Positions 20,904-29,423 of a DNA stretch of 64,000 nt are shown here, one piece after another. The position numbers were made by a program, and so were the translations under genes. Below the pieces are notes generated by a model. It saw nothing but the letters and a program-made list of their open reading frames with translations, was not told the DNA's origin and searched no databases. How positions within the stretch are numbered: the stretch's first letter is position 1; every line of letters begins with the position of its first letter. This DNA comes from an uncultured Pseudomonadota bacterium (GTDB lineage: Bacteria; Oederibacteriota; Muellerivitia; Muellerivitales; Muellerivitaceae). The stretch covers positions 320,001 through 384,000 of the forward strand of contig CAWIIP010000002.1 of assembly GCA_963836235.1 (NCBI GenBank), written 5' to 3'.

Positions 20904-22832
20904 ATGGGACTTTTCGGCAATAAAGAAGATAAAAAGAAAGAGTTGCTGGAGTCCGCCCAAAAACTCGCCGACCAAGGCGATACCCCTAAAGCCTTGAAAG
21001 AGCTTCAGAAGGCCCTGGAACTTGACCCCAATTACAAAGAAGCCCACACGGCCATGGGCTTCATCTATTCCGATATGGGCCAATCCGACGATGCCGTCCA
21101 GGTTTTTAAAAAAGTCATTTCCATCGACAACAATTCCCCCGAAGCCTGGAACAACTTGGGCCTTATGCTGGCCCGTTCCGAGAAATACAAGGAAGCCATC
21201 AAGACCTTTGAAGACGCCATTGCCCGCAACCCTAAAACAGCCACTTTCTACAATAATTTGGGTAACGTTTATTACGAACTCGGGCAATTTTCCCAAGCCA
21301 TGCAGGTTTTTCAAACCGCCGTTGAGTTGGATCCCTCTTACGCGGAGTCCTACCACCGCTTAGGTATCGACAAGAATACCGCCGGTAATATGGAAGTAGC
21401 GATGAAACGTCTAGAAGAAGCCGCCAAATCCGGAAAAAACAAAGCCAAGGTGGCCTACGATATGGGCACCCTCTACGCCAAACAAGAACTCCACGACAAG
21501 GCCATCAAATCTTTCCAAGACGCAACCCGCCTGGACGGGCGTTTTGAAGCGGCTTACATGGCCATGGGTTTCGCCTACGAACGCAAAGGCGACTTGCAAA
21601 AGGCGCTGGAGACCTTTGCGCAGGTTATCACTCTAAATCCTCAAAGCGCCAAAATTCACAATACGGTAGGACTTATCTACGACAAACTGCGACTTTATAA
21701 ACAGGCTATTAAGGAATACCGAATCGCAATCCAATTGGAGCCGAGTTACGCAAACGCGCATTTCATCTTGGGCCAAGTTTACGAGAACAAGGGGATTATG
21801 GAAAAAGCCGTGGCTGAGTACGAAAAGTTTGTCCGTATCCACGAGACCGGCGCCATGGTGGATGAAGCCAAGTCGCGAATCGCTAAAATAAAGAACATCA
21901 GTCTGGATGAATTAGAAAAATTGCTGAACATGAAGAAGTTAGATGCTCCCGCCAGTGCCGAAACCGCGCCTAAGGAGCCTATTCCTTCTTCCATTGACGC
22001 ACTCTCCAGTCCGACTCCGGCGCCAACACCGCCTAACGCCGCACCCCTACCGGCGGAAACCGGAGGAGTCAAACTGACCGATCCCAAGGAATACTTAAAA
22101 CAAGTTTTGGCCAAAGCTAAGGCCGCCAAAAACCCCCAGGGTACTGCTCCAACCACCGCCTCTTCAACCCAGGCCGCTACCGAAACATCCGAATCCAAAC
22201 CAATGGCCACCGCCGTCTTAACATCTCCTGTTTCAATCCTTGAACCTCCATCGGTGAGCATTCCCTCCATAACCCCGCATTCGACGGGAGTCCCCACTCA
22301 AACCGATCCTATTCCTCCAATCGAATCAGTTCAACCTTCATCCCGGCAAGCCACTGATCTCTCAAAAACCACCTTGCCTCCCATTGTGCCCATAGCTTTT
22401 CAAGCTCAGCCCGTCCCTGTCGTGGAAATATCGGCGGCACCTATAGAATTGGCCGCAACAGAAGTCCTTCATACACCCTATAGCGCCGAAGAAGAAACAA
22501 ACTCCTCTATCCCGGTCTACAATCCAGATCAACCTCTTCCCGCTTCGGCATTGGATGGTTATGTATTAGATGAACAGGAAGTACTCAACGCCATTGTTCA
22601 AGTTGATACCCAAAACGTCGAGCAAGAAGCTCAAGTCCTTGAAGCAGTAGAAGCCATGAGAGCCTCCCACATTACCGGGGATGAACTTTTGGAGGATTCC
22701 CCTCAGATGCCCCCCATACCAATATCCATACCCTCCCTTTCGTCTATCCCTAAGCCACCAACAGCCCCTCCGATCCCAACCCCACTTCCATCCACACCTC
22801 AAAAATCTACGATCAAACACGGCTTTTTCTAA
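20904..22832 (+). CDS. Tetratricopeptide repeat protein with Pro/Ser/Thr-rich and acidic C-terminal extension
   Basis: Multiple TPR motifs in the first ~330 aa, followed by a low-complexity tail. Confidence 0.85.
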   Translation: MGLFGNKEDKKKELLESAQKLADQGDTPKALKELQKALELDPNYKEAHTAMGFIYSDMGQSDDAVQVFKKVISIDNNSPEAWNNLGLMLARSEKYKEAIKTFEDAIARNPKTATFYNNLGNVYYELGQFSQAMQVFQTAVELDPSYAESYHRLGIDKNTAGNMEVAMKRLEEAAKSGKNKAKVAYDMGTLYAKQELHDKAIKSFQDATRLDGRFEAAYMAMGFAYERKGDLQKALETFAQVITLNPQSAKIHNTVGLIYDKLRLYKQAIKEYRIAIQLEPSYANAHFILGQVYENKGIMEKAVAEYEKFVRIHETGAMVDEAKSRIAKIKNISLDELEKLLNMKKLDAPASAETAPKEPIPSSIDALSSPTPAPTPPNAAPLPAETGGVKLTDPKEYLKQVLAKAKAAKNPQGTAPTTASSTQAATETSESKPMATAVLTSPVSILEPPSVSIPSITPHSTGVPTQTDPIPPIESVQPSSRQATDLSKTTLPPIVPIAFQAQPVPVVEISAAPIELAATEVLHTPYSAEEETNSSIPVYNPDQPLPASALDGYVLDEQEVLNAIVQVDTQNVEQEAQVLEAVEAMRASHITGDELLEDSPQMPPIPISIPSLSSIPKPPTAPPIPTPLPSTPQKSTIKHGFF

Positions 22833-24120: not shown

Positions 24121-25095
24121 ATGCTCGCAAATATCAGAAGCGCCGCTCTCTTGGGGATTGACGCCTATGCCGTCGAGTGCGAGGTCGATATTGCTCCCGG
24201 GCTGCCTACTTTCCAAACGGTAGGATTACCGGACGCCGCCGTCAAGGAATCCAAGGACCGGGTCAAAAGTGCCGTCACCAATTCCCAGTTCAATTTTCCC
24301 GTCCAACGTATCACGGTCAATTTAGCCCCGGCTGACACCAAAAAAGAGGGCCCTTCTTTCGACTTACCCATGGCTGTTGGAATATTGGTGGCTTCCGGCC
24401 GCCTCCCCCAAAAATCGGTCGAGGGTTATTGGATGGTGGGCGAATTGGCGCTCGATGGGAAAATCAGGCCGATTCGTGGGGCTCTTTCTATCGCCCTGGC
24501 TGCCCGGGATGCGGGCGTCAAAGGCTTGTTGGTCCCTTCCGAAAACGCCAAGGAAGCGGCGGTCGTCCAGGAACTTCCCGTCTATGCCGTTAAAAACTTG
24601 AAGGAAACCTTTGAGTTTCTCAATGGGAACAAGCAGTTGCATCCCACCCAGGTCAACATCGAGGAGGAGTTTCGCAATCACTCTAACTACAAGCTGGACT
24701 TTTCCGACGTTAAAGGCCAAGAGAACGCCAAAAGGGCTTTGGAAATCGGGGCTGCCGGCGGACACAATATTTTACTGGTGGGGCCCCCCGGCTCCGGGAA
24801 ATCCATGCTTACCAAGCGTCTTCCTACCATTTTGCCTTCCCTATCCCTGGAAGAAGCCATCCAAACCACCAAAATCCACTCCATCGCGGGTACCTTGGCC
24901 CGGCGCAAGGCCCTCATGGCCACCCGTGCCTTCCGATCACCCCACCATACGGTTTCGGATGCTGGTCTCATTGGCGGCGGGACTATTCCTAAACCAGGCG
25001 AGGTCAGTTTGGCTCACAACGGAGTCCTGTTTTTGGATGAGTTTCCGGAGTTTAATAAAAATGTGCTGGAAGTTTTGCGCCAGCCTTTGGAGGAC
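24121..25095 (+). pseudogene. comM: comM/YifB Mg-chelatase-like ATPase, N-terminal part (interrupted)
   Basis: [24 protein letters not shown] and [18 protein letters not shown]; homology stops abruptly at codon 325. Confidence 0.92.
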
Positions 25096-25155
25096 TTTCG
25101 GGTAAGCGGAAGATTGCGGCTTTTTGGGTTTAAATTGGAGGTTGCAGAAAGGCAA
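25095..25155 (+). repeat. Left 61-bp direct repeat
   Basis: ctttcgggtaagcggaagattgcggctttttgggtttaaattggaggttgcagaaaggcaa; 54/61 identical to 28789-28849. Confidence 0.92.
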
Positions 25156-25232
25156 AAAAACCATGCATCTTCGCCTACGCGAATATCATTAACAAAGAGT
25201 GAATCTCGGTTACGATCTTAACTGGTTTTCCA

Positions 25233-25895
25233 TTATTTTTTTAGTCGGCTTACTTTTTTTGGCAATATATATAAACTTTCAATTATGTGGTCAATAATAT
25301 CAATGCAAATTTTTAAGTCCTTTTCTGAATGATCACTTAGCTCATGTAAAGCTTCGTTTCCCAGCAACCTTATTTTATGAAGAAATTCTACCTGTTTATT
25401 GTTTAGAATCCCTTTCTCCGCAAGTCCATTCAGCTTTCCTTCCAATGTGTTCTTTGTTTTTACAAGGCCACTATTTTTATCAACAACAAGCCCTTTTAAA
25501 ACTGATTGTTCCTTGCAAATTCCTTCCAGCACCATTCTAATTCCAGCTGCGCACAAGTGAAAATGATTCGCGTTAAATGCCCAAATTGTTTGGTAGTAGA
25601 TGTTTTCTATGTCTTTCGGCGTTCCAGTAGAAGTTTTAATTTGGATATTATTTATTTTTCTGTCGGGATAAATAAATTCATGATCACCAAAATCATCAGC
25701 ATCCATATAATGCCTAAATGTAATTTGATCGCACCCATTACACCTAATAATTTGAAAAGTGTCATCGGTTTCCATTGCAGTGATATCACCGTCTATTTCA
25801 ACATCTTCATTGGAATGGCTTTTAATTTCTTTTAAAACTTTGTGGTGAGTTTTTCTTTTGCAGGAAAGACAATATACATTCATTAAATTTTCCAT
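25233..25895 (-). CDS. DUF4145 (HEPN-like) domain protein with N-terminal Zn-binding motifs
   Basis: CLSC...CNGC; AAGIRMVLEGIC; IRLLGNEALH (Rx4-6H-like). Confidence 0.8.
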   Translation of the reverse strand: MENLMNVYCLSCKRKTHHKVLKEIKSHSNEDVEIDGDITAMETDDTFQIIRCNGCDQITFRHYMDADDFGDHEFIYPDRKINNIQIKTSTGTPKDIENIYYQTIWAFNANHFHLCAAGIRMVLEGICKEQSVLKGLVVDKNSGLVKTKNTLEGKLNGLAEKGILNNKQVEFLHKIRLLGNEALHELSDHSEKDLKICIDIIDHIIESLYILPKKVSRLKK

Positions 25896-25907
25896 TTGAT
25901 TTTCGAA

Positions 25908-26555
25908 TTACAACGGTTCAGTTGGCTGGGATTTTGATTTTGCCCAAAACAAACCCCAGATTTCATTTTCGGAGAATGTTTCATGCAGTAAGACTCTTGC
26001 CCCTTCAAAATGTGCACCACTCGTTGTGACATCGTCTAAAAGAGTTAAAATTTTTCCGCTTTTATGTTTTCTTCGAAAATCTTCATTTATTCGTAACGAA
26101 TCATAAACCGATTTCCAATTACGAGGCTTTTTCGATTCATGAAAGGCTGGCATTTTATCACCTTCCAGAATTGGAAAATATTCAACATTTTGGCATTGTT
26201 TTGCGATGGCCTGAGCAACCAAATCAATACGATCGTCATAGTCTTTATGGGATCTTTGTTTTGAACATGGCATTGGGATAATCAAAAACTTTTCGTCACT
26301 ACGCTTTTTCGAAGTCAAAAAATCCGTTACTTCTTGTGAAAACGTATCAATCGCTCCGTTGCGATATCCAATTCGGTTGCTTGGAGCTTTTTTACCCATT
26401 TGAAAATTGGCGATTAATTGATTGGTCTCGGAGAATCCGAAACCCTTGCCAGGAGTGTATGTTCTTGCATAATAAATGTTTTTTTCTAGGTGACCATTGC
26501 AACAATAAAAATCGTCAGTTTCGTCGGCCTGACGCCACCTTTTTTCATTTTGCAT
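25908..26555 (-). CDS. Phosphoribosyltransferase-like protein (partner of DprA)
   Basis: IIPMPCS and the PRPP-binding motif LLDDVTTSGAH. Confidence 0.8.
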   Translation of the reverse strand: MQNEKRWRQADETDDFYCCNGHLEKNIYYARTYTPGKGFGFSETNQLIANFQMGKKAPSNRIGYRNGAIDTFSQEVTDFLTSKKRSDEKFLIIPMPCSKQRSHKDYDDRIDLVAQAIAKQCQNVEYFPILEGDKMPAFHESKKPRNWKSVYDSLRINEDFRRKHKSGKILTLLDDVTTSGAHFEGARVLLHETFSENEIWGLFWAKSKSQPTEPL

Positions 26556-26574
26556 GTTAAACCGATTCCCATAT

Positions 26575-27480
26575 CTAATTTAACGACTGTAGTTCATCTA
26601 CTAATTGTTTATCATCAGTAATTTTTATGGCACCTTTTTTAAGATATGTTTCTGGCCAGTTCAACCCTTTATCAAAACAAGACTTCAAAATAAATAATTT
26701 TTTACCTTGTTTAATGGCGGCTCGTGCCTGAATTAAAGAACCGCTTGTATCAGAAGCTTCAACTATAACTGTTGCCGCACTCAAGGCGGCCATCGTTACA
26801 TTTCTTGCGGGGAAAAAATTTCTTTTGTACTTCCAAAAAGTGCTCAAAGAATTTACATAAAATGGAACTTGGCTTAAAACCAAATACTCTTTAGCAATTT
26901 CTTCTTGGAGTGTTTTATTGTTCTTTGGATAAACTTCATTTAAGGCGGTTCCTAAAACTGCGATAGTTTTGCCTCCATTTTCAATAGTCGCTTGATGTGC
27001 GGCTGAATCAATGCCTTCTGCTAATCCCGACATAACCGTAAATTTATTTTCCACAAGAAGGCTTGCAACTTTTTTCGCTCTTTTAATGCCTTCAGGCGAA
27101 GCTTGTCGAGCACCAACTACAGAGACAATTCTAGATGAAAGTAAGTCTAGCGCTCCACGATAATAAAGAACTTCCAGTGGATACTCCGCCAATCTTAATC
27201 TTTCTGGATATTCAAAATCTTTGTGAAAAATTGCCGAATAACTTTTGAAAGGCATTAACCCATTTATTGTGTTTTTAATTTGTTCGATCTTTTCGTCAAC
27301 AATCCCAACTAATTTCGCAATATTTGATGGCAATTCGTAATTATGACTTTGGAATAGTTCGGCAATTTTTTTAACACTTGGGTATTTCTCCCATAAAGAT
27401 TCATAGGCGGAAATTTCCCAAGTAGGGCGTATCACATCATCTTGATTTTCAAAAAAACCTACCTGAGCACTTGTGTTCAT
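26575..27480 (-). CDS. DprA/Smf (SLOG) family protein, defence-associated type
   Basis: YPERL, LYYRG, VVGAR, SGLAEGIDSAAH, FPARN and VEASDTSGS motifs; no C-terminal winged helix. Confidence 0.88.
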   Translation of the reverse strand: MNTSAQVGFFENQDDVIRPTWEISAYESLWEKYPSVKKIAELFQSHNYELPSNIAKLVGIVDEKIEQIKNTINGLMPFKSYSAIFHKDFEYPERLRLAEYPLEVLYYRGALDLLSSRIVSVVGARQASPEGIKRAKKVASLLVENKFTVMSGLAEGIDSAAHQATIENGGKTIAVLGTALNEVYPKNNKTLQEEIAKEYLVLSQVPFYVNSLSTFWKYKRNFFPARNVTMAALSAATVIVEASDTSGSLIQARAAIKQGKKLFILKSCFDKGLNWPETYLKKGAIKITDDKQLVDELQSLN

Positions 27481-27640
27481 GGAAAATCTCCCCTATTTCG
27501 TGGATGGCGGATAGTATACGGGAGTATACTTTTAAAATTCAAGAGATTCTAATCCTAGCAGAATCAGACCTCATTTTAAGCGGTTTTCCTCTTAATAAAG
27601 TTCCTTAAATCTTCTAAATTATTTAGACCCCCATAAAATA

Positions 27641-28357
27641 TTATTCAGAAAACAAAAGCTGAAACCCATCAACTATTTTTTCATAGTCTATCGCCGTGGA
27701 TGACTCTGTCAGAGTTAGGCCGTTAACGAACCCTATAAATCGTACAGCGCGCTCATATTCTTCCTCGTACATTTTCAGGGTAATCACTTTTGGTGTGCCT
27801 CCAACACTCCCATCCTTTCCCAAAAGAACATAAAGAGAATTTTGTTTTCGTTTATCTTTTTTACCATTAGCAATTTTCATTGCTTCCTCATCCCAATCAG
27901 TACTTCCATAGCTGTATACTGGCCCCCACCTGCCAACTTTTTCAAACTTAAGAATATTCATCGAATCAGCAACTTTGCTTGGTAACCTAAAATCTCCTGT
28001 TTTCATTTGCTCTTTATGTCTCGCAAGCATTTCTTCAAAGTCGGGGGATAAATGGTCGACAATAATACTTAATAAATGTTTACAATTATGGTCGCGAGTA
28101 ATCCGAAGTATGTTTTTATTCCAAGGGATAACACCCTTAGCTACTAAATGAAGCAAAAATCCCTTGGCGCATTCTTCTTGTGAAATTACGGAAAGAAAAT
28201 AAGGCGTAGCCAGAGAATAATCCCACTCTTTTAAATGTTGGCTTTCTTCCAATAATCGATTTGCATTTTCAACACAAACCTTAATTGACCGTGTCCAATT
28301 TTTTTTCTTCTTCAATGTTTTTTCAATCCTAACGTGATGTATCCTGCCTTTTTTCAC
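27641..28357 (-). CDS. AbiV-family (HEPN) abortive infection-like protein
   Basis: ENANRLLEES, SQEECAK, RDHNCKH and KQNSLYV patterns typical of AbiV; start codon uncertain. Confidence 0.7.
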   Translation of the reverse strand: MKKGRIHHVRIEKTLKKKKNWTRSIKVCVENANRLLEESQHLKEWDYSLATPYFLSVISQEECAKGFLLHLVAKGVIPWNKNILRITRDHNCKHLLSIIVDHLSPDFEEMLARHKEQMKTGDFRLPSKVADSMNILKFEKVGRWGPVYSYGSTDWDEEAMKIANGKKDKRKQNSLYVLLGKDGSVGGTPKVITLKMYEEEYERAVRFIGFVNGLTLTESSTAIDYEKIVDGFQLLFSE

Positions 28358-28411
28358 ACTATGAAATAGTCGGGTGACAAACCTGATTTTTCCATTTTCC
28401 CTGAAGCCGGA

Positions 28412-28855
28412 TTATTTCCTCGATTCTATTATTATCGAGAGCTTTTTAATGAGTTTTTTTGATGGCTCATGTTTCCCACGTTCCCACTTCGCGACAGTCG
28501 TTTCATCTACCCCGACCAATTGAGCGAATTTCTCCTGACTCAATCCATGGGTTAGGCGATAAAGCTTCATCTGTTCAACAACGTTGTCAGTTTTCTTGCA
28601 GTAGGGTGGTGGGGTGTACCCCAGGAAGGCAATGATCTTGGGTAGGTAGGTGAAATAGGGCGTGACCCGGTTCAGTTCCCAGTTTGTGACCGCCGATTCG
28701 GTGACCCCCAAGGTGGCCGCCACGTCTTTTTGCCACAGCCCCAGGTCAAGGCGGCGCTTCCTGATGTGATCCCCCAGGGTAGTCAGAGCTTTCGGGTAAG
28801 CGCGAGATTGGGGCTTTTTCGCTTTAAATTGTAGCTTGCAGAAAGGCAACGCCAC
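28412..28855 (-). CDS. Tandem (double) XRE-family HTH protein
   Basis: LGDHIRKRRLDLGLWQKDVA..VTNWE and YRLTHGLSQEKFA..VAKWE; its GTG start overlaps the comM junction. Confidence 0.85.
   Translation of the reverse strand: MALPFCKLQFKAKKPQSRAYPKALTTLGDHIRKRRLDLGLWQKDVAATLGVTESAVTNWELNRVTPYFTYLPKIIAFLGYTPPPYCKKTDNVVEQMKLYRLTHGLSQEKFAQLVGVDETTVAKWERGKHEPSKKLIKKLSIIIESRK
28789..28849 (+). repeat. Right 61-bp direct repeat (lies within the 5' end of the HTH gene)
   Basis: ctttcgggtaagcgcgagattggggctttttcgctttaaattgtagcttgcagaaaggcaa. Confidence 0.92.
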
Positions 28856-29340
28856 CCTGCCCCTGTGGTTATTACACCGACCCTTCCAAGGAATGCACTT
28901 GCACGCCCCACCAAATACAGAAATACCTGAGCAAGATTTCCGGCCCCCTTTTGGATCGCATTGACCTGCATATCGACGTACCCGCTTTGAAATGGAAGGA
29001 AATATCCGATACTGAACCCAGCGAGCCTTCGGGAGCCATCCGTGAGCGGATCAGCAAGGCCCGGACCATTCAACAAAAGCGTTTCACGGGCGAGGGCTTA
29101 CATTGCAATTCCCAAATGGCGACTACCCAATTGCGCAAATACTGCGGCCTGGACGAGCCGTCCCAGTCCCTCTTAAAGAACGCCATGGAAAAATTCGGCC
29201 TCTCAGCTCGCGCTTACGACCGAATCCTGAAAGTCGCCCGCACCATCGCTGACTTGGATTCCGAAGAATTTATCAAACCCGCCTATATCGCCGAAGCCAT
29301 CCAATACCGTAACTTGGATAGAAGTGTTTGGCGGAATTAA
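28855..29340 (+). pseudogene. comM: comM/YifB C-terminal part
   Basis: Resumes at PCPCGYY..CTC..YLSKISGPLLDRIDLH and ends with LSARAYDRILKVARTIADL..EAIQYR. Confidence 0.92.
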
Positions 29341-29423
29341 ACAGTACTCTTCGAGTAAAAGATCGTGCCCGATAACTGGAATTAATCAAAATCTTGCTTG
29401 TAACCGTGGACCATCCATTTAAC

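Follow-up and report, generated by a model that had tools for sequence, protein, structure and literature searches.

Here, we describe an island of defense genes that splits the competence gene comM in an uncultured bacterium of the family Muellerivitaceae (phylum Oederibacteriota; assembly GCA_963836235.1, genome G000 in this study), together with the family of islands to which it belongs. The island lies in a stretch of 64,000 nt (contig CAWIIP010000002.1, positions 320,001 to 384,000, forward strand), hereafter the window, and coordinates count from the first nucleotide of that stretch. The 5′ part of comM occupies 24121..25095 on the plus strand and encodes residues 1–325, of which the last are QPLED; it matches Pfam Mg_chelatase (1–135 of 207) and ChlI, and its Walker B motif, LFLDE, is at 25027–25041. 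Past QPLED, the open reading frame (ORF) continues out of frame until 25221. The 3′ part, on the plus strand at 28858..29340, comprises the last 161 codons from CPCG to the stop, with the frame open, and matches Mg_chelatase (155–206 of 207) and Mg_chelatase_C (3e-34). This 3′ part is present as a single copy genome-wide. The two parts are separated by an AT-rich insert of 3.76 kb, with a GC content of 0.33–0.39 over 25200–28400 and 0.50–0.56 in the flanks and in the gene that caps the island, which encodes a protein with two helix-turn-helix (HTH) domains. The Pfam halves and the GC profile bear out an earlier note on this DNA, which had comM split at QPLED and PCPCG.

The 5′ part of the window comM shares 78–93% identity with comM of same-family relatives. 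In ten such relatives with an uninterrupted gene, QPLED and PCPCG are separated by 25 residues, and 75 nt of comM are therefore absent from the window. No target duplication was found in the window when the comM halves were compared with intact relatives. Upstream of comM, a gene for a long TPR/proline-rich protein (20904–22832) is syntenic in the same-family genome G070 (L138, 6564–8567), and the comM 5′ flank is therefore native. The 3′ flank of comM varies among relatives, with an aldo-keto reductase in the window and a sigma-54 activator in genome G002.

All five genes of the insert are on the minus strand. The gene nearest the 5′ part of comM (25233..25895) encodes a DUF4145/PD-T7-4-like protein with an N-terminal zinc ribbon (Pfam DUF4145, 1.6e-14; PADLOC PD-T7-4, 8.6e-5). 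It is followed by ShosT, a phosphoribosyltransferase-like protein (25908..26555; PADLOC ShosT, 2.7e-35), and ShosA, a DprA-like/SLOG protein (26575..27480; PADLOC ShosA, 2.2e-80; Pfam DNA_processg_A, 3.4e-56), which as neighbors 19 nt apart on the same strand constitute a Shosta pair. Next is a HEPN AbiV-like abortive-infection protein (27641..28357; Pfam HEPN_AbiV, 1.6e-13; PADLOC AbiV, 0.0049). The fifth gene, H1 (28412..28849), encodes the double-XRE HTH protein of 145 amino acids (Pfam HTH_3 twice, 1.9e-22), counted from a TTG at 28849; the ORF list gives a GTG at 28855. The TTG is the likely start and lies at a distance of 8 nt from the codon for the first Cys in CPCG. Names of cargo genes follow the PADLOC models, and Shosta, AbiV, and PD-T7-4 are defense systems. 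The window cargo fits these models and is in itself ordinary; only the vehicle is unusual.

The left repeat as the remnant of a second HTH gene

One family of direct repeats was found in the window, at 25095–25166 and 28789–28860, in the same orientation and 83% identical over 72 nt. Recomputing the best 61 nt (25095–25155 versus 28789–28849) gave seven mismatches, four of which affect third codon positions when the HTH frame is read on the minus strand, in agreement with the earlier count of 54/61. The right direct repeat (28789..28860) spans the H1 5′ end and the leader and reaches a few bases into the comM 3′ part, and its peptide is LPFCKLQFKAKKPQSRAYPK. In the whole genome, the repeat has only these two copies, and a repeat search of the window found no inverted repeats at the island ends.

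The left copy contains a stub of a second HTH gene (H2′, 25096..25163, minus strand) which comprises the 8-nt leader, a TTG start, and 20 complete codons followed by parts of two more. Its closest N-terminal allele is in locus L036 (61/68 nt). Homology in the left copy does not end with the 61 nt but extends some 65 nt beyond the start codon and takes in a decayed stub of the start of comM 3′ (25164..25228, plus strand; the CPCGY... region, with a 17-nt deletion) of the kind that accompanies "stub-type" HTH genes in other family members. When aligned with L034, L036, the second HTH gene of G012 (G012-H2), and true comM 3′ copies, the window stub is identical to L036 and L034 at 42–48 of 67 nt. 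A comM 3′ origin for the stub rests on this multiple alignment with stub-type relatives; free local alignment of the 66-nt left-repeat flank to comM 3′ was not significant, with 72/300 and 124/300 shuffles attaining the score.

Contigs from X1 and X2, two public sequencing runs of one study, carry the island of the window. The X1 contig (7.7 kb) matches 25096–28786 at 99%, with 34 differences. Leftward of 25096, it continues into a further HTH body, aligned to 28526–28789 with 2 differences and then to a diverged HTH, and it extends about 3 kb beyond this gene, which we call H2. On the other side, 339 diverged nt are followed by a comM 3′ end that is 76% identical (52 differences in 216). In the X2 contig, a 79%-identical HTH body is joined to 25096–25569 with 0 differences. 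Stretches of the window without contig cover in runs X1–X4 (e.g., 24591–24984) were given no evidential weight.

By comparison of these sequences, the left repeat is the first 22 codons of H2, an HTH gene paralogous to H1 and carried whole by the X1 and X2 contigs, and is no dedicated terminal signal. The joint of comM codon 325 and H2 codon 22 is a deletion scar, and the deletion truncated H2 and removed 75 nt of comM. The limits of the repeat are then set by this deletion endpoint and by the point at which the upstream regions, a full comM 3′ copy versus a stub, diverge. Under this scheme, a first unit would comprise the stub (25164–25228), DUF4145, ShosT, ShosA, AbiV, H1, and the adjoining comM 3′ part, and a second unit, headed by H2, would formerly have stood to its left. 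A single deletion from comM codon 326 to H2 codon 22 would have taken the rest of the second unit and broken comM, leaving the 61–72-nt "repeat." Very probably, the window thus contains an array, since damaged, of two HTH-capped cargo cassettes that are anchored in comM.

We also considered whether the first 22–26 codons of the HTH gene are the antisense of comM codons 326–352, which would make the left junction a true duplication edge. This was rejected, as an nhmmer profile of 46 HTH-side segments gave 0 hits (E ≤ 10) in 14 intact comM segments versus 1 in 280 shuffles.

A widespread family with a conserved HTH-comM junction

Relatives of the double-HTH gene were collected from several sources. 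A metagenome search with a profile of seven homologues returned at least 446 stretches with relatives, of which the best 80 were fetched (L036–L115); with 12 genome loci, the window's own included, this gave 92 loci for examination. The profile is present in 9 of 99 genomes of the phylum, counting G000, and four of 30 genomes of the same family carry relatives besides G000. A single-protein scan of genome contigs found two loci, one of them unrelated. Protein searching yielded 209 HTH relatives at E ≤ 1e-10, all from metagenomes or metagenome-assembled genomes (MAGs) and all under generic XRE names; two family proteins are labeled as coming from Gemmatimonadales and Ignavibacteria MAGs. No relatives were found in viral contigs. 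Several sequencing runs that share part of the window stretch carry the labels peat, permafrost, or wetland; parts of it are present in X3 and X4, runs from wetland and permafrost. Runs X5–X15 have small shares, and no habitat claim rests on them; among these, the metatranscriptome run X10 shares 0.11 of the words of window 24600–29400.

In 56 of the 92 loci (51/80 metagenome, 5/12 genome; tblastn), a comM 3′ fragment starting at CPCG adjoins a divergent HTH start. The modules sit at a junction that interrupts comM, as the earlier note had proposed. The distance from the HTH start codon to the CPCG codons is 8 nt. Across 46 distinct junctions read in comM orientation, a near-invariant GGCAACGCA, made up of the TTG start and a conserved 4-nt leader, is followed by four variable nucleotides and an invariant TG that belongs to the first Cys codon. 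The leader, the 8 nt that separate the HTH start from the TGC codon of comM (28850..28857 in the window), is therefore CGCA plus four variable nucleotides in the conservation profile of the family. Read on the HTH strand, the leader TGCG directly upstream of the TTG is about as conserved as coding positions, though it is non-coding. The four hypervariable nucleotides are of two classes, one purine-rich (GGAA-like) and one resembling comM (ACCC-like). Many of the loci scored as lacking comM retain, upstream of the HTH gene, what is left of a decayed CPCG region.

Contigs often break at this place: 23 of the 80 metagenome contigs start <200 nt upstream of the HTH gene, and three end <200 nt after it. 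Breaks upstream are expected from a comM segment that is repeated in assemblies, and the family is likely under-assembled and under-counted in short-read metagenomes. Judged by these homologues and their neighborhoods, the double-HTH gene, with its ALPFC..YP..LGDH signature, marks a real and widespread family of variable-cargo modules, as had been anticipated from the window alone.

comM is usually kept whole by a duplication of its 3′ end

The usual order is an intact comM, the cargo, an HTH gene on the opposite strand that reads back into the cargo, and a displaced comM 3′ copy of about 480 nt. Eight loci have a visible comM 5′ part, and comM is whole in six of them (L056, L084, L086, L109, G070, and G002) and broken in L115 and the window. 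The intactness of comM in G002 is taken from the overlap of contigs C169 and C152 across the site. The duplicated segment begins at the CPCG codons and extends 1–3 nt past the stop codon. comM 3′ copies within one locus are 65–97.5% identical, and full-length copies are 75–97.5% identical. In G070, whose HTH is 81% identical, the native comM 3′ copy could not be told from the other, both being 81% identical to that of the sister genome.

Absence of a target duplication, proposed as a feature of such islands, thus holds for the window and fails for the family; as the duplication is usual, its lack is peculiar to the decayed window copy. By alignment across the loci, the family signature is the junction of the HTH start and the CPCG codons of comM, usually together with a comM 3′ duplication of about 480 nt that keeps comM intact.

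Tandem arrays were observed in L093, L097, L099, L102, L038, L084, and G002. Neighboring units in such arrays have between them either a full comM 3′ copy or a decayed stub of one. L093, L097, and L102 each have two modules of comM 3′ and HTH, and L084 and G002 have three comM 3′ copies, of which the oldest is frameshifted or reduced to a leader remnant. In one unit of G002 (L033, contig C8, 1259–1681), the HTH gene has TTC at the position of the family TTG/ATG start and the adjacent comM 3′ copy is frameshifted, and this unit may be decaying. Stub-type units have no full comM copy, only a decayed stub of about 80 nt with a common 17-nt deletion, located upstream of the HTH gene in L034, L036, G012-H2, and the left copy of the window. 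Second same-strand HTH copies or stubs several kilobases away occur in seven of the 80 metagenome loci and in G012 and G029. A terminal copy of the HTH 5′ end, which the earlier note regarded as a hallmark of these modules, therefore recurs as second genes or their stubs; its role as a dedicated signal did not survive comparison with the X1 and X2 contigs.

Modules were also seen in other surroundings. In G012 (L027, contig C6, 8635–13984), two HTH genes flank a TOTE system (an archaeo-eukaryotic primase-helicase, an AAA_14/DUF4143 ATPase, and a small ORF) beside rluD, about 55 kb from an intact comM, and the second HTH gene has the stub upstream. Elsewhere in this genome (L030, contig C4, 6252–10076), a frameshifted family HTH gene has a transposase gene on either side, one of IS1595 type and the other an IS200-like Y1 transposase gene that is fused to sigma-70 region 4/DnaA-C-like HTH domains.

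Variable cargo and a regulator-like HTH protein

Cargo is highly variable between loci. Besides the TOTE primase-helicase system of G012, we found an RHS protein with a small neighboring ORF (L084), proteins with type IX secretion system (T9SS) tails, a TonB/NosL/ABC cluster (L093), KatG and pirin (G002), and TetR, an NmrA-like protein, and GAPDH (G070). A scan of 125 of 129 cargo-side ORFs, the four omitted being duplicates of the L056 and L076 loci, gave matches to MADS (mad8 three times, mad3 twice), CBASS cyclase and E1-E2, DrmD, and Ppl. A few genes of insertion sequence type (IstB, HTH_21) were present within the cargo. Two loci, L050 and L063, were considered as conjugative and rejected: their TrwB/TraG-like ATPases accompany SMC-like and 8xMP proteins, with no relaxase or recombinase, and are not taken as evidence of an integrative and conjugative element (ICE).

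We then examined the double-HTH protein, H. An AlphaFold2 model built from a 32-sequence alignment (predicted local distance difference test score, pLDDT, of 89.5) has helical HTH domains at residues 25–76 and 90–143, preceded by a 24-residue N-terminal arm that is unstructured in the model and has a conserved LPFC..KKP..AYPK motif. Foldseek matched it only to Cro/CI repressors, controller proteins of restriction-modification systems, HipB, CapH, ImmR, and the like (best E, 4.6e-3). Pfam, the AlphaFold2 model, and Foldseek indicated no catalytic features, and H has the characters of an XRE/Cro-type regulator. We infer from the predicted fold that H is probably a Cro/C-protein/CapH-like transcription regulator of the cassette that it heads.

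Because only 8 nt part its start codon from comM sequence, the translation and transcription signals of H must presumably lie in comM-derived sequence, either the antisense 3′ fragment or the stub, and this would account for the constant co-travel of the HTH gene and the comM piece. A scan upstream of H for sigma-70-like promoters listed none in the comM 3′ part and was uninformative, with a regional count of 14 versus 10.3 ± 3.2 in shuffles. Third positions of N-terminal codons vary freely among H genes, and this part is therefore conserved as protein rather than as a DNA site. Between H1 of the window and its G002 relative, 41 of 66 nt match in the N-terminal part and 113 of 132 in the next 132 nt; similarities of the N-terminal module and the body are incongruent.

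No recombinase was found in the islands examined

No tyrosine or serine recombinase was found in the window. Genome-wide, there are eight PF00589 and two PF00239 matches, all outside the window and none near comM. All ORFs of ≥80 amino acids in loci L017–L127 and the whole window were screened with a hidden Markov model (HMM) from the eight integrases of this genome and by phmmer with its two serine recombinases, and no recombinase linked to family modules was detected; the only match, an unrelated integrase in L035 (6.6e-20), served as a positive control. Nor were recombinase families among the 25 commonest Pfam families of the 125 cargo ORFs. Ten islands bounded on both sides are without a recombinase: L056, L084, L086, L109, L093, L097, L102, L115, G070, and the G002 unit between displaced comM 3′ copies. 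A serine-recombinase fragment suspected in G029 (L028:705–1211) was rejected, as it matched no Pfam family. Domain, HMM/phmmer, and repeat searches thus agree with the report of neither integrase, transposase, terminal inverted repeats, nor comM target duplication in the window, and the proposed genome-wide search for recombinases and further repeat copies has now been made.

As a separate observation, contigs C1, C2, C4, and C5 of G000 (L128–L135) contain eight tyrosine-recombinase genes of 369–432 amino acids, six of them of 369–374 amino acids. Of such uniform size, they look like a multi-copy element family.

DISCUSSION

The explanation that accounts best for the whole combines the array anatomy, H as a regulator, and mobility by host recombination, and we give it about an even chance of being right. 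On its mobility component, we lean, with slightly less than even confidence, toward a model in which the comM 3′ copies and the HTH gene, as repeated modules, let host homologous recombination exchange the cassettes. Direct repeats of 430–480 nt flank every unit, and looping out between them would give circles. Incoming DNA with a comM 3′ copy and an HTH gene could recombine with a comM or a resident HTH gene of sufficient similarity, and such recombination would add or swap a unit, reproducing the structures seen. One cassette has been exchanged between comM and N-terminal backgrounds, because the 99%-identical cassette of X1 adjoins a comM 3′ end that is only 76% identical. To that extent the island behaves as the cassette that had been suspected, and its kind is free of a recombinase of its own in every locus examined. 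HTH distances co-vary with those of the adjacent comM 3′ copies (Mantel r = 0.63 over 21 pairs, attained by 0/2,000 permutations), and dependence on homology would explain why HTH lineages track comM lineages. The sporadic occurrence among relatives is consistent with homology-limited spread, as are the incongruent similarities of N-terminal module and body. In its fullest form, this account has a new class of recombinase-free mobile cassettes carrying portable homology, in the shape of the double-HTH gene and a 3′ copy of comM, a competence helicase gene that is nearly universal; host recombination, for example after natural transformation, would insert, stack, swap, and loop out units in any related comM while comM is kept functional, and the HTH protein and its arm would control the cassette or license exchange. 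We consider this fullest version less likely than not.

Several observations weigh against host homologous recombination, and a number of these speak for a rival account, in which the units are non-autonomous site-specific elements. Here, a recombinase supplied in trans, by a helper or by the host, would act at the junction of the HTH leader and CPCG and at the same site in comM or a resident junction, H would perhaps be an accessory DNA-binding factor, and accretion and decay would produce the arrays. Most of the repeats are now 75–86% identical and so a poor RecA substrate unless the events are old, and the position of insertion in comM is exactly the same even for HTH genes that share only 45% identity. 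The spacing GGCAACGCA-NNNN-TG is invariant in the 46 junctions, and the non-coding TGCG of the leader is conserved. Many junctions, those of the GGAA type, have a 6-bp inverted pair (CGCAGG/CCTGCG) around a 6-nt center with the 4-nt hypervariable spacer. These look like a recombinase core or coupling sequence, and such spacers resemble the coupling sequences of tyrosine-recombinase transposons. L115 has a sharp junction of comM ...CCCTG and island with only TG in common and no full comM 3′ copy, which pure homologous recombination cannot create. Stub-type units are found in four different contexts, although the roughly 80 nt of decayed sequence that they retain offer too little homology to comM. 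HTH modules also occur away from comM, as beside rluD in G012. Most contigs are short, leaving room for a more distant recombinase or for one in the deleted part of the window. Co-variation of HTH and comM is expected under several models for linked genes. No circle or empty site was observed among the loci and contigs, and the one joint that appeared to go back is explained by H2. A recombinase acting in trans nevertheless has no candidate enzyme in any locus examined or near comM in this genome, and the elements have no relatives in viral contigs. Co-divergence of HTH and comM lineages would be unexpected for a broad-range site-specific element, and the N-terminal codons, with their free third positions, are conserved as protein and not as a DNA site. 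We consider this account a tentative possibility.

The remaining readings fare worse. That the window is a decayed integrase-encoding island has in its favor that a deletion did happen at the place, from comM codon 326 to H2 codon 22, where the recombinase would have been lost; the ten islands that are bounded on both sides and lack a recombinase make it improbable. A non-mobile origin would have an old, vertically inherited hotspot by comM, with cargo turned over by other elements and by local duplication. The co-divergence of HTH and comM would fit, as would the many displaced copies that are old and decayed, whereas the sporadic distribution in family and phylum, a comM 3′ pair that is 97.5% identical and hence recent, the 99%-identical cassette beside a 76% comM 3′ end, and the shuffling of N-terminal and body modules argue against it, and we regard it as very unlikely. 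A relationship to the comM-targeting element Tsy is more improbable still. In this reading, the islands would be non-autonomous relatives of Tsy and Tn6022 that kept only the HTH gene and are moved by TnsF and the tyrosine recombinase YRec in trans. Tsy lacks inverted repeats, forms circles, and interrupts comM, with its cargo next to the 3′ portion of the gene, and it encodes a small HTH protein that transposition requires (PMC10293859). However, the site of action of Tsy and Tn6022 is the Walker B region, and the family junction is 129 nt downstream of LFLDE; the Tsy HTH gene lies between YRec and TnsF on the comM 5′ side, whereas here it is on the comM 3′ side; no YRec- or TnsF-like gene was found in any locus screened; and comM is usually kept whole in the HTH-capped family.

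Among other classes of element with a similar arrangement are cis-mobilizable elements (CIMEs), which are deletion derivatives of ICEs or of integrative and mobilizable elements (IMEs), have integrase-bearing relatives that share their site, and undergo tandem accretion. The islands resemble CIMEs as recombinase-less units flanked by direct repeats, here comM 3′ copies or HTH 5′ ends, derived from the 3′ end of a target and in tandem at one site. The difference is in the repeat, which is a gene end of about 480 nt with a conserved regulator gene rather than a short att core. No integrase-bearing relative at the same site was found in the 92 loci, mostly short contigs and drawn from the best 80 of at least 446 metagenome matches, or in viral contigs. 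Integron arrays share recombinase-less cassettes, variable cargo, promoter-proximal stacking, and a recurring module; there is no IntI-like platform or tyrosine recombinase in the window or arrays, however, and in place of an attC hairpin the recurring module is a protein-coding regulator gene with a piece of the target gene. When prophages and islands supply a new 3′ end to their target (such as icd or tRNA genes), the gene stays whole and a displaced pseudo-copy is left; these elements carry an integrase beside the att site. The duplication and displaced copy are alike, and only the integrase beside the att site is theirs alone.

Two kinds of comM-targeting element are described, the Tn6022-type Tn7-like elements (AbaR-type) and Tsy. 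As set out by Faure et al. (2023, PMC10293859), these split comM using their own enzymes (TnsABC, TniQ, and TnsF, or YRec and TnsF) with recognition of Walker B, and insertion into comM takes place no more than 40 bp downstream of the attachment site. The islands share with them the comM target and cargo between comM fragments and, with Tsy as presented there, the lack of terminal inverted repeats and the involvement of an HTH gene. They differ from Tsy in having no YRec or TnsF-like tyrosine recombinase in the window or in L017–L127, and in position, with the family junction downstream of LFLDE in intact comM as given above and the left junction of the window 54 nt downstream, relative to the site in that account. 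From Tn6022 and other Tn7-like elements, they differ in having no tnsABC, tniQ/tnsF, inverted ends, or short (5-bp) duplication, the window ORFs being DUF4145, ShosT, ShosA, AbiV, and HTH. From both, the family differs in that comM is usually restored by the 3′ duplication. The ssrA islands of Dehalococcoides (PMC3146451), reportedly recombinase-less islands stacked at one site, can be grouped with CIMEs. Integrative mobile elements exploiting Xer recombination (IMEX), which use XerCD, with the element-encoded activator XafT, likewise have no recombinase of their own, and a small element protein is reported to be able to license the host enzyme (PMC6744903, PMC9226527). Their target is dif and not comM; no dif-like sequence was recognized at the junction, which was given no formal test, and H has only XRE HTH domains.

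A limited full-text literature search, which did not cover supplements, found no description of an HTH-capped island that duplicates the 3′ end of comM. HTH-capped comM islands apparently are an undescribed, third, and much more widespread occupant of comM, found in environmental lineages, after the resistance islands and Tsy, for which comM is known as a favored landing site. They are distinctive in their different and exact comM site, in the usual repair of the gene that they enter, and in carrying defense cargo (Shosta, AbiV, CBASS, MADS-like, TOTE, RHS) and metabolic cargo without a recombinase. The junction of HTH and comM 3′ gives a simple sequence marker for such islands and explains the recurrent assembly break in the 23 of 80 contigs. 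Should host recombination or a hidden helper enzyme move the units, they would represent a new route for the circulation of defense genes and would offer a concrete case, open to testing, on the long-standing question of how islands without a recombinase spread.

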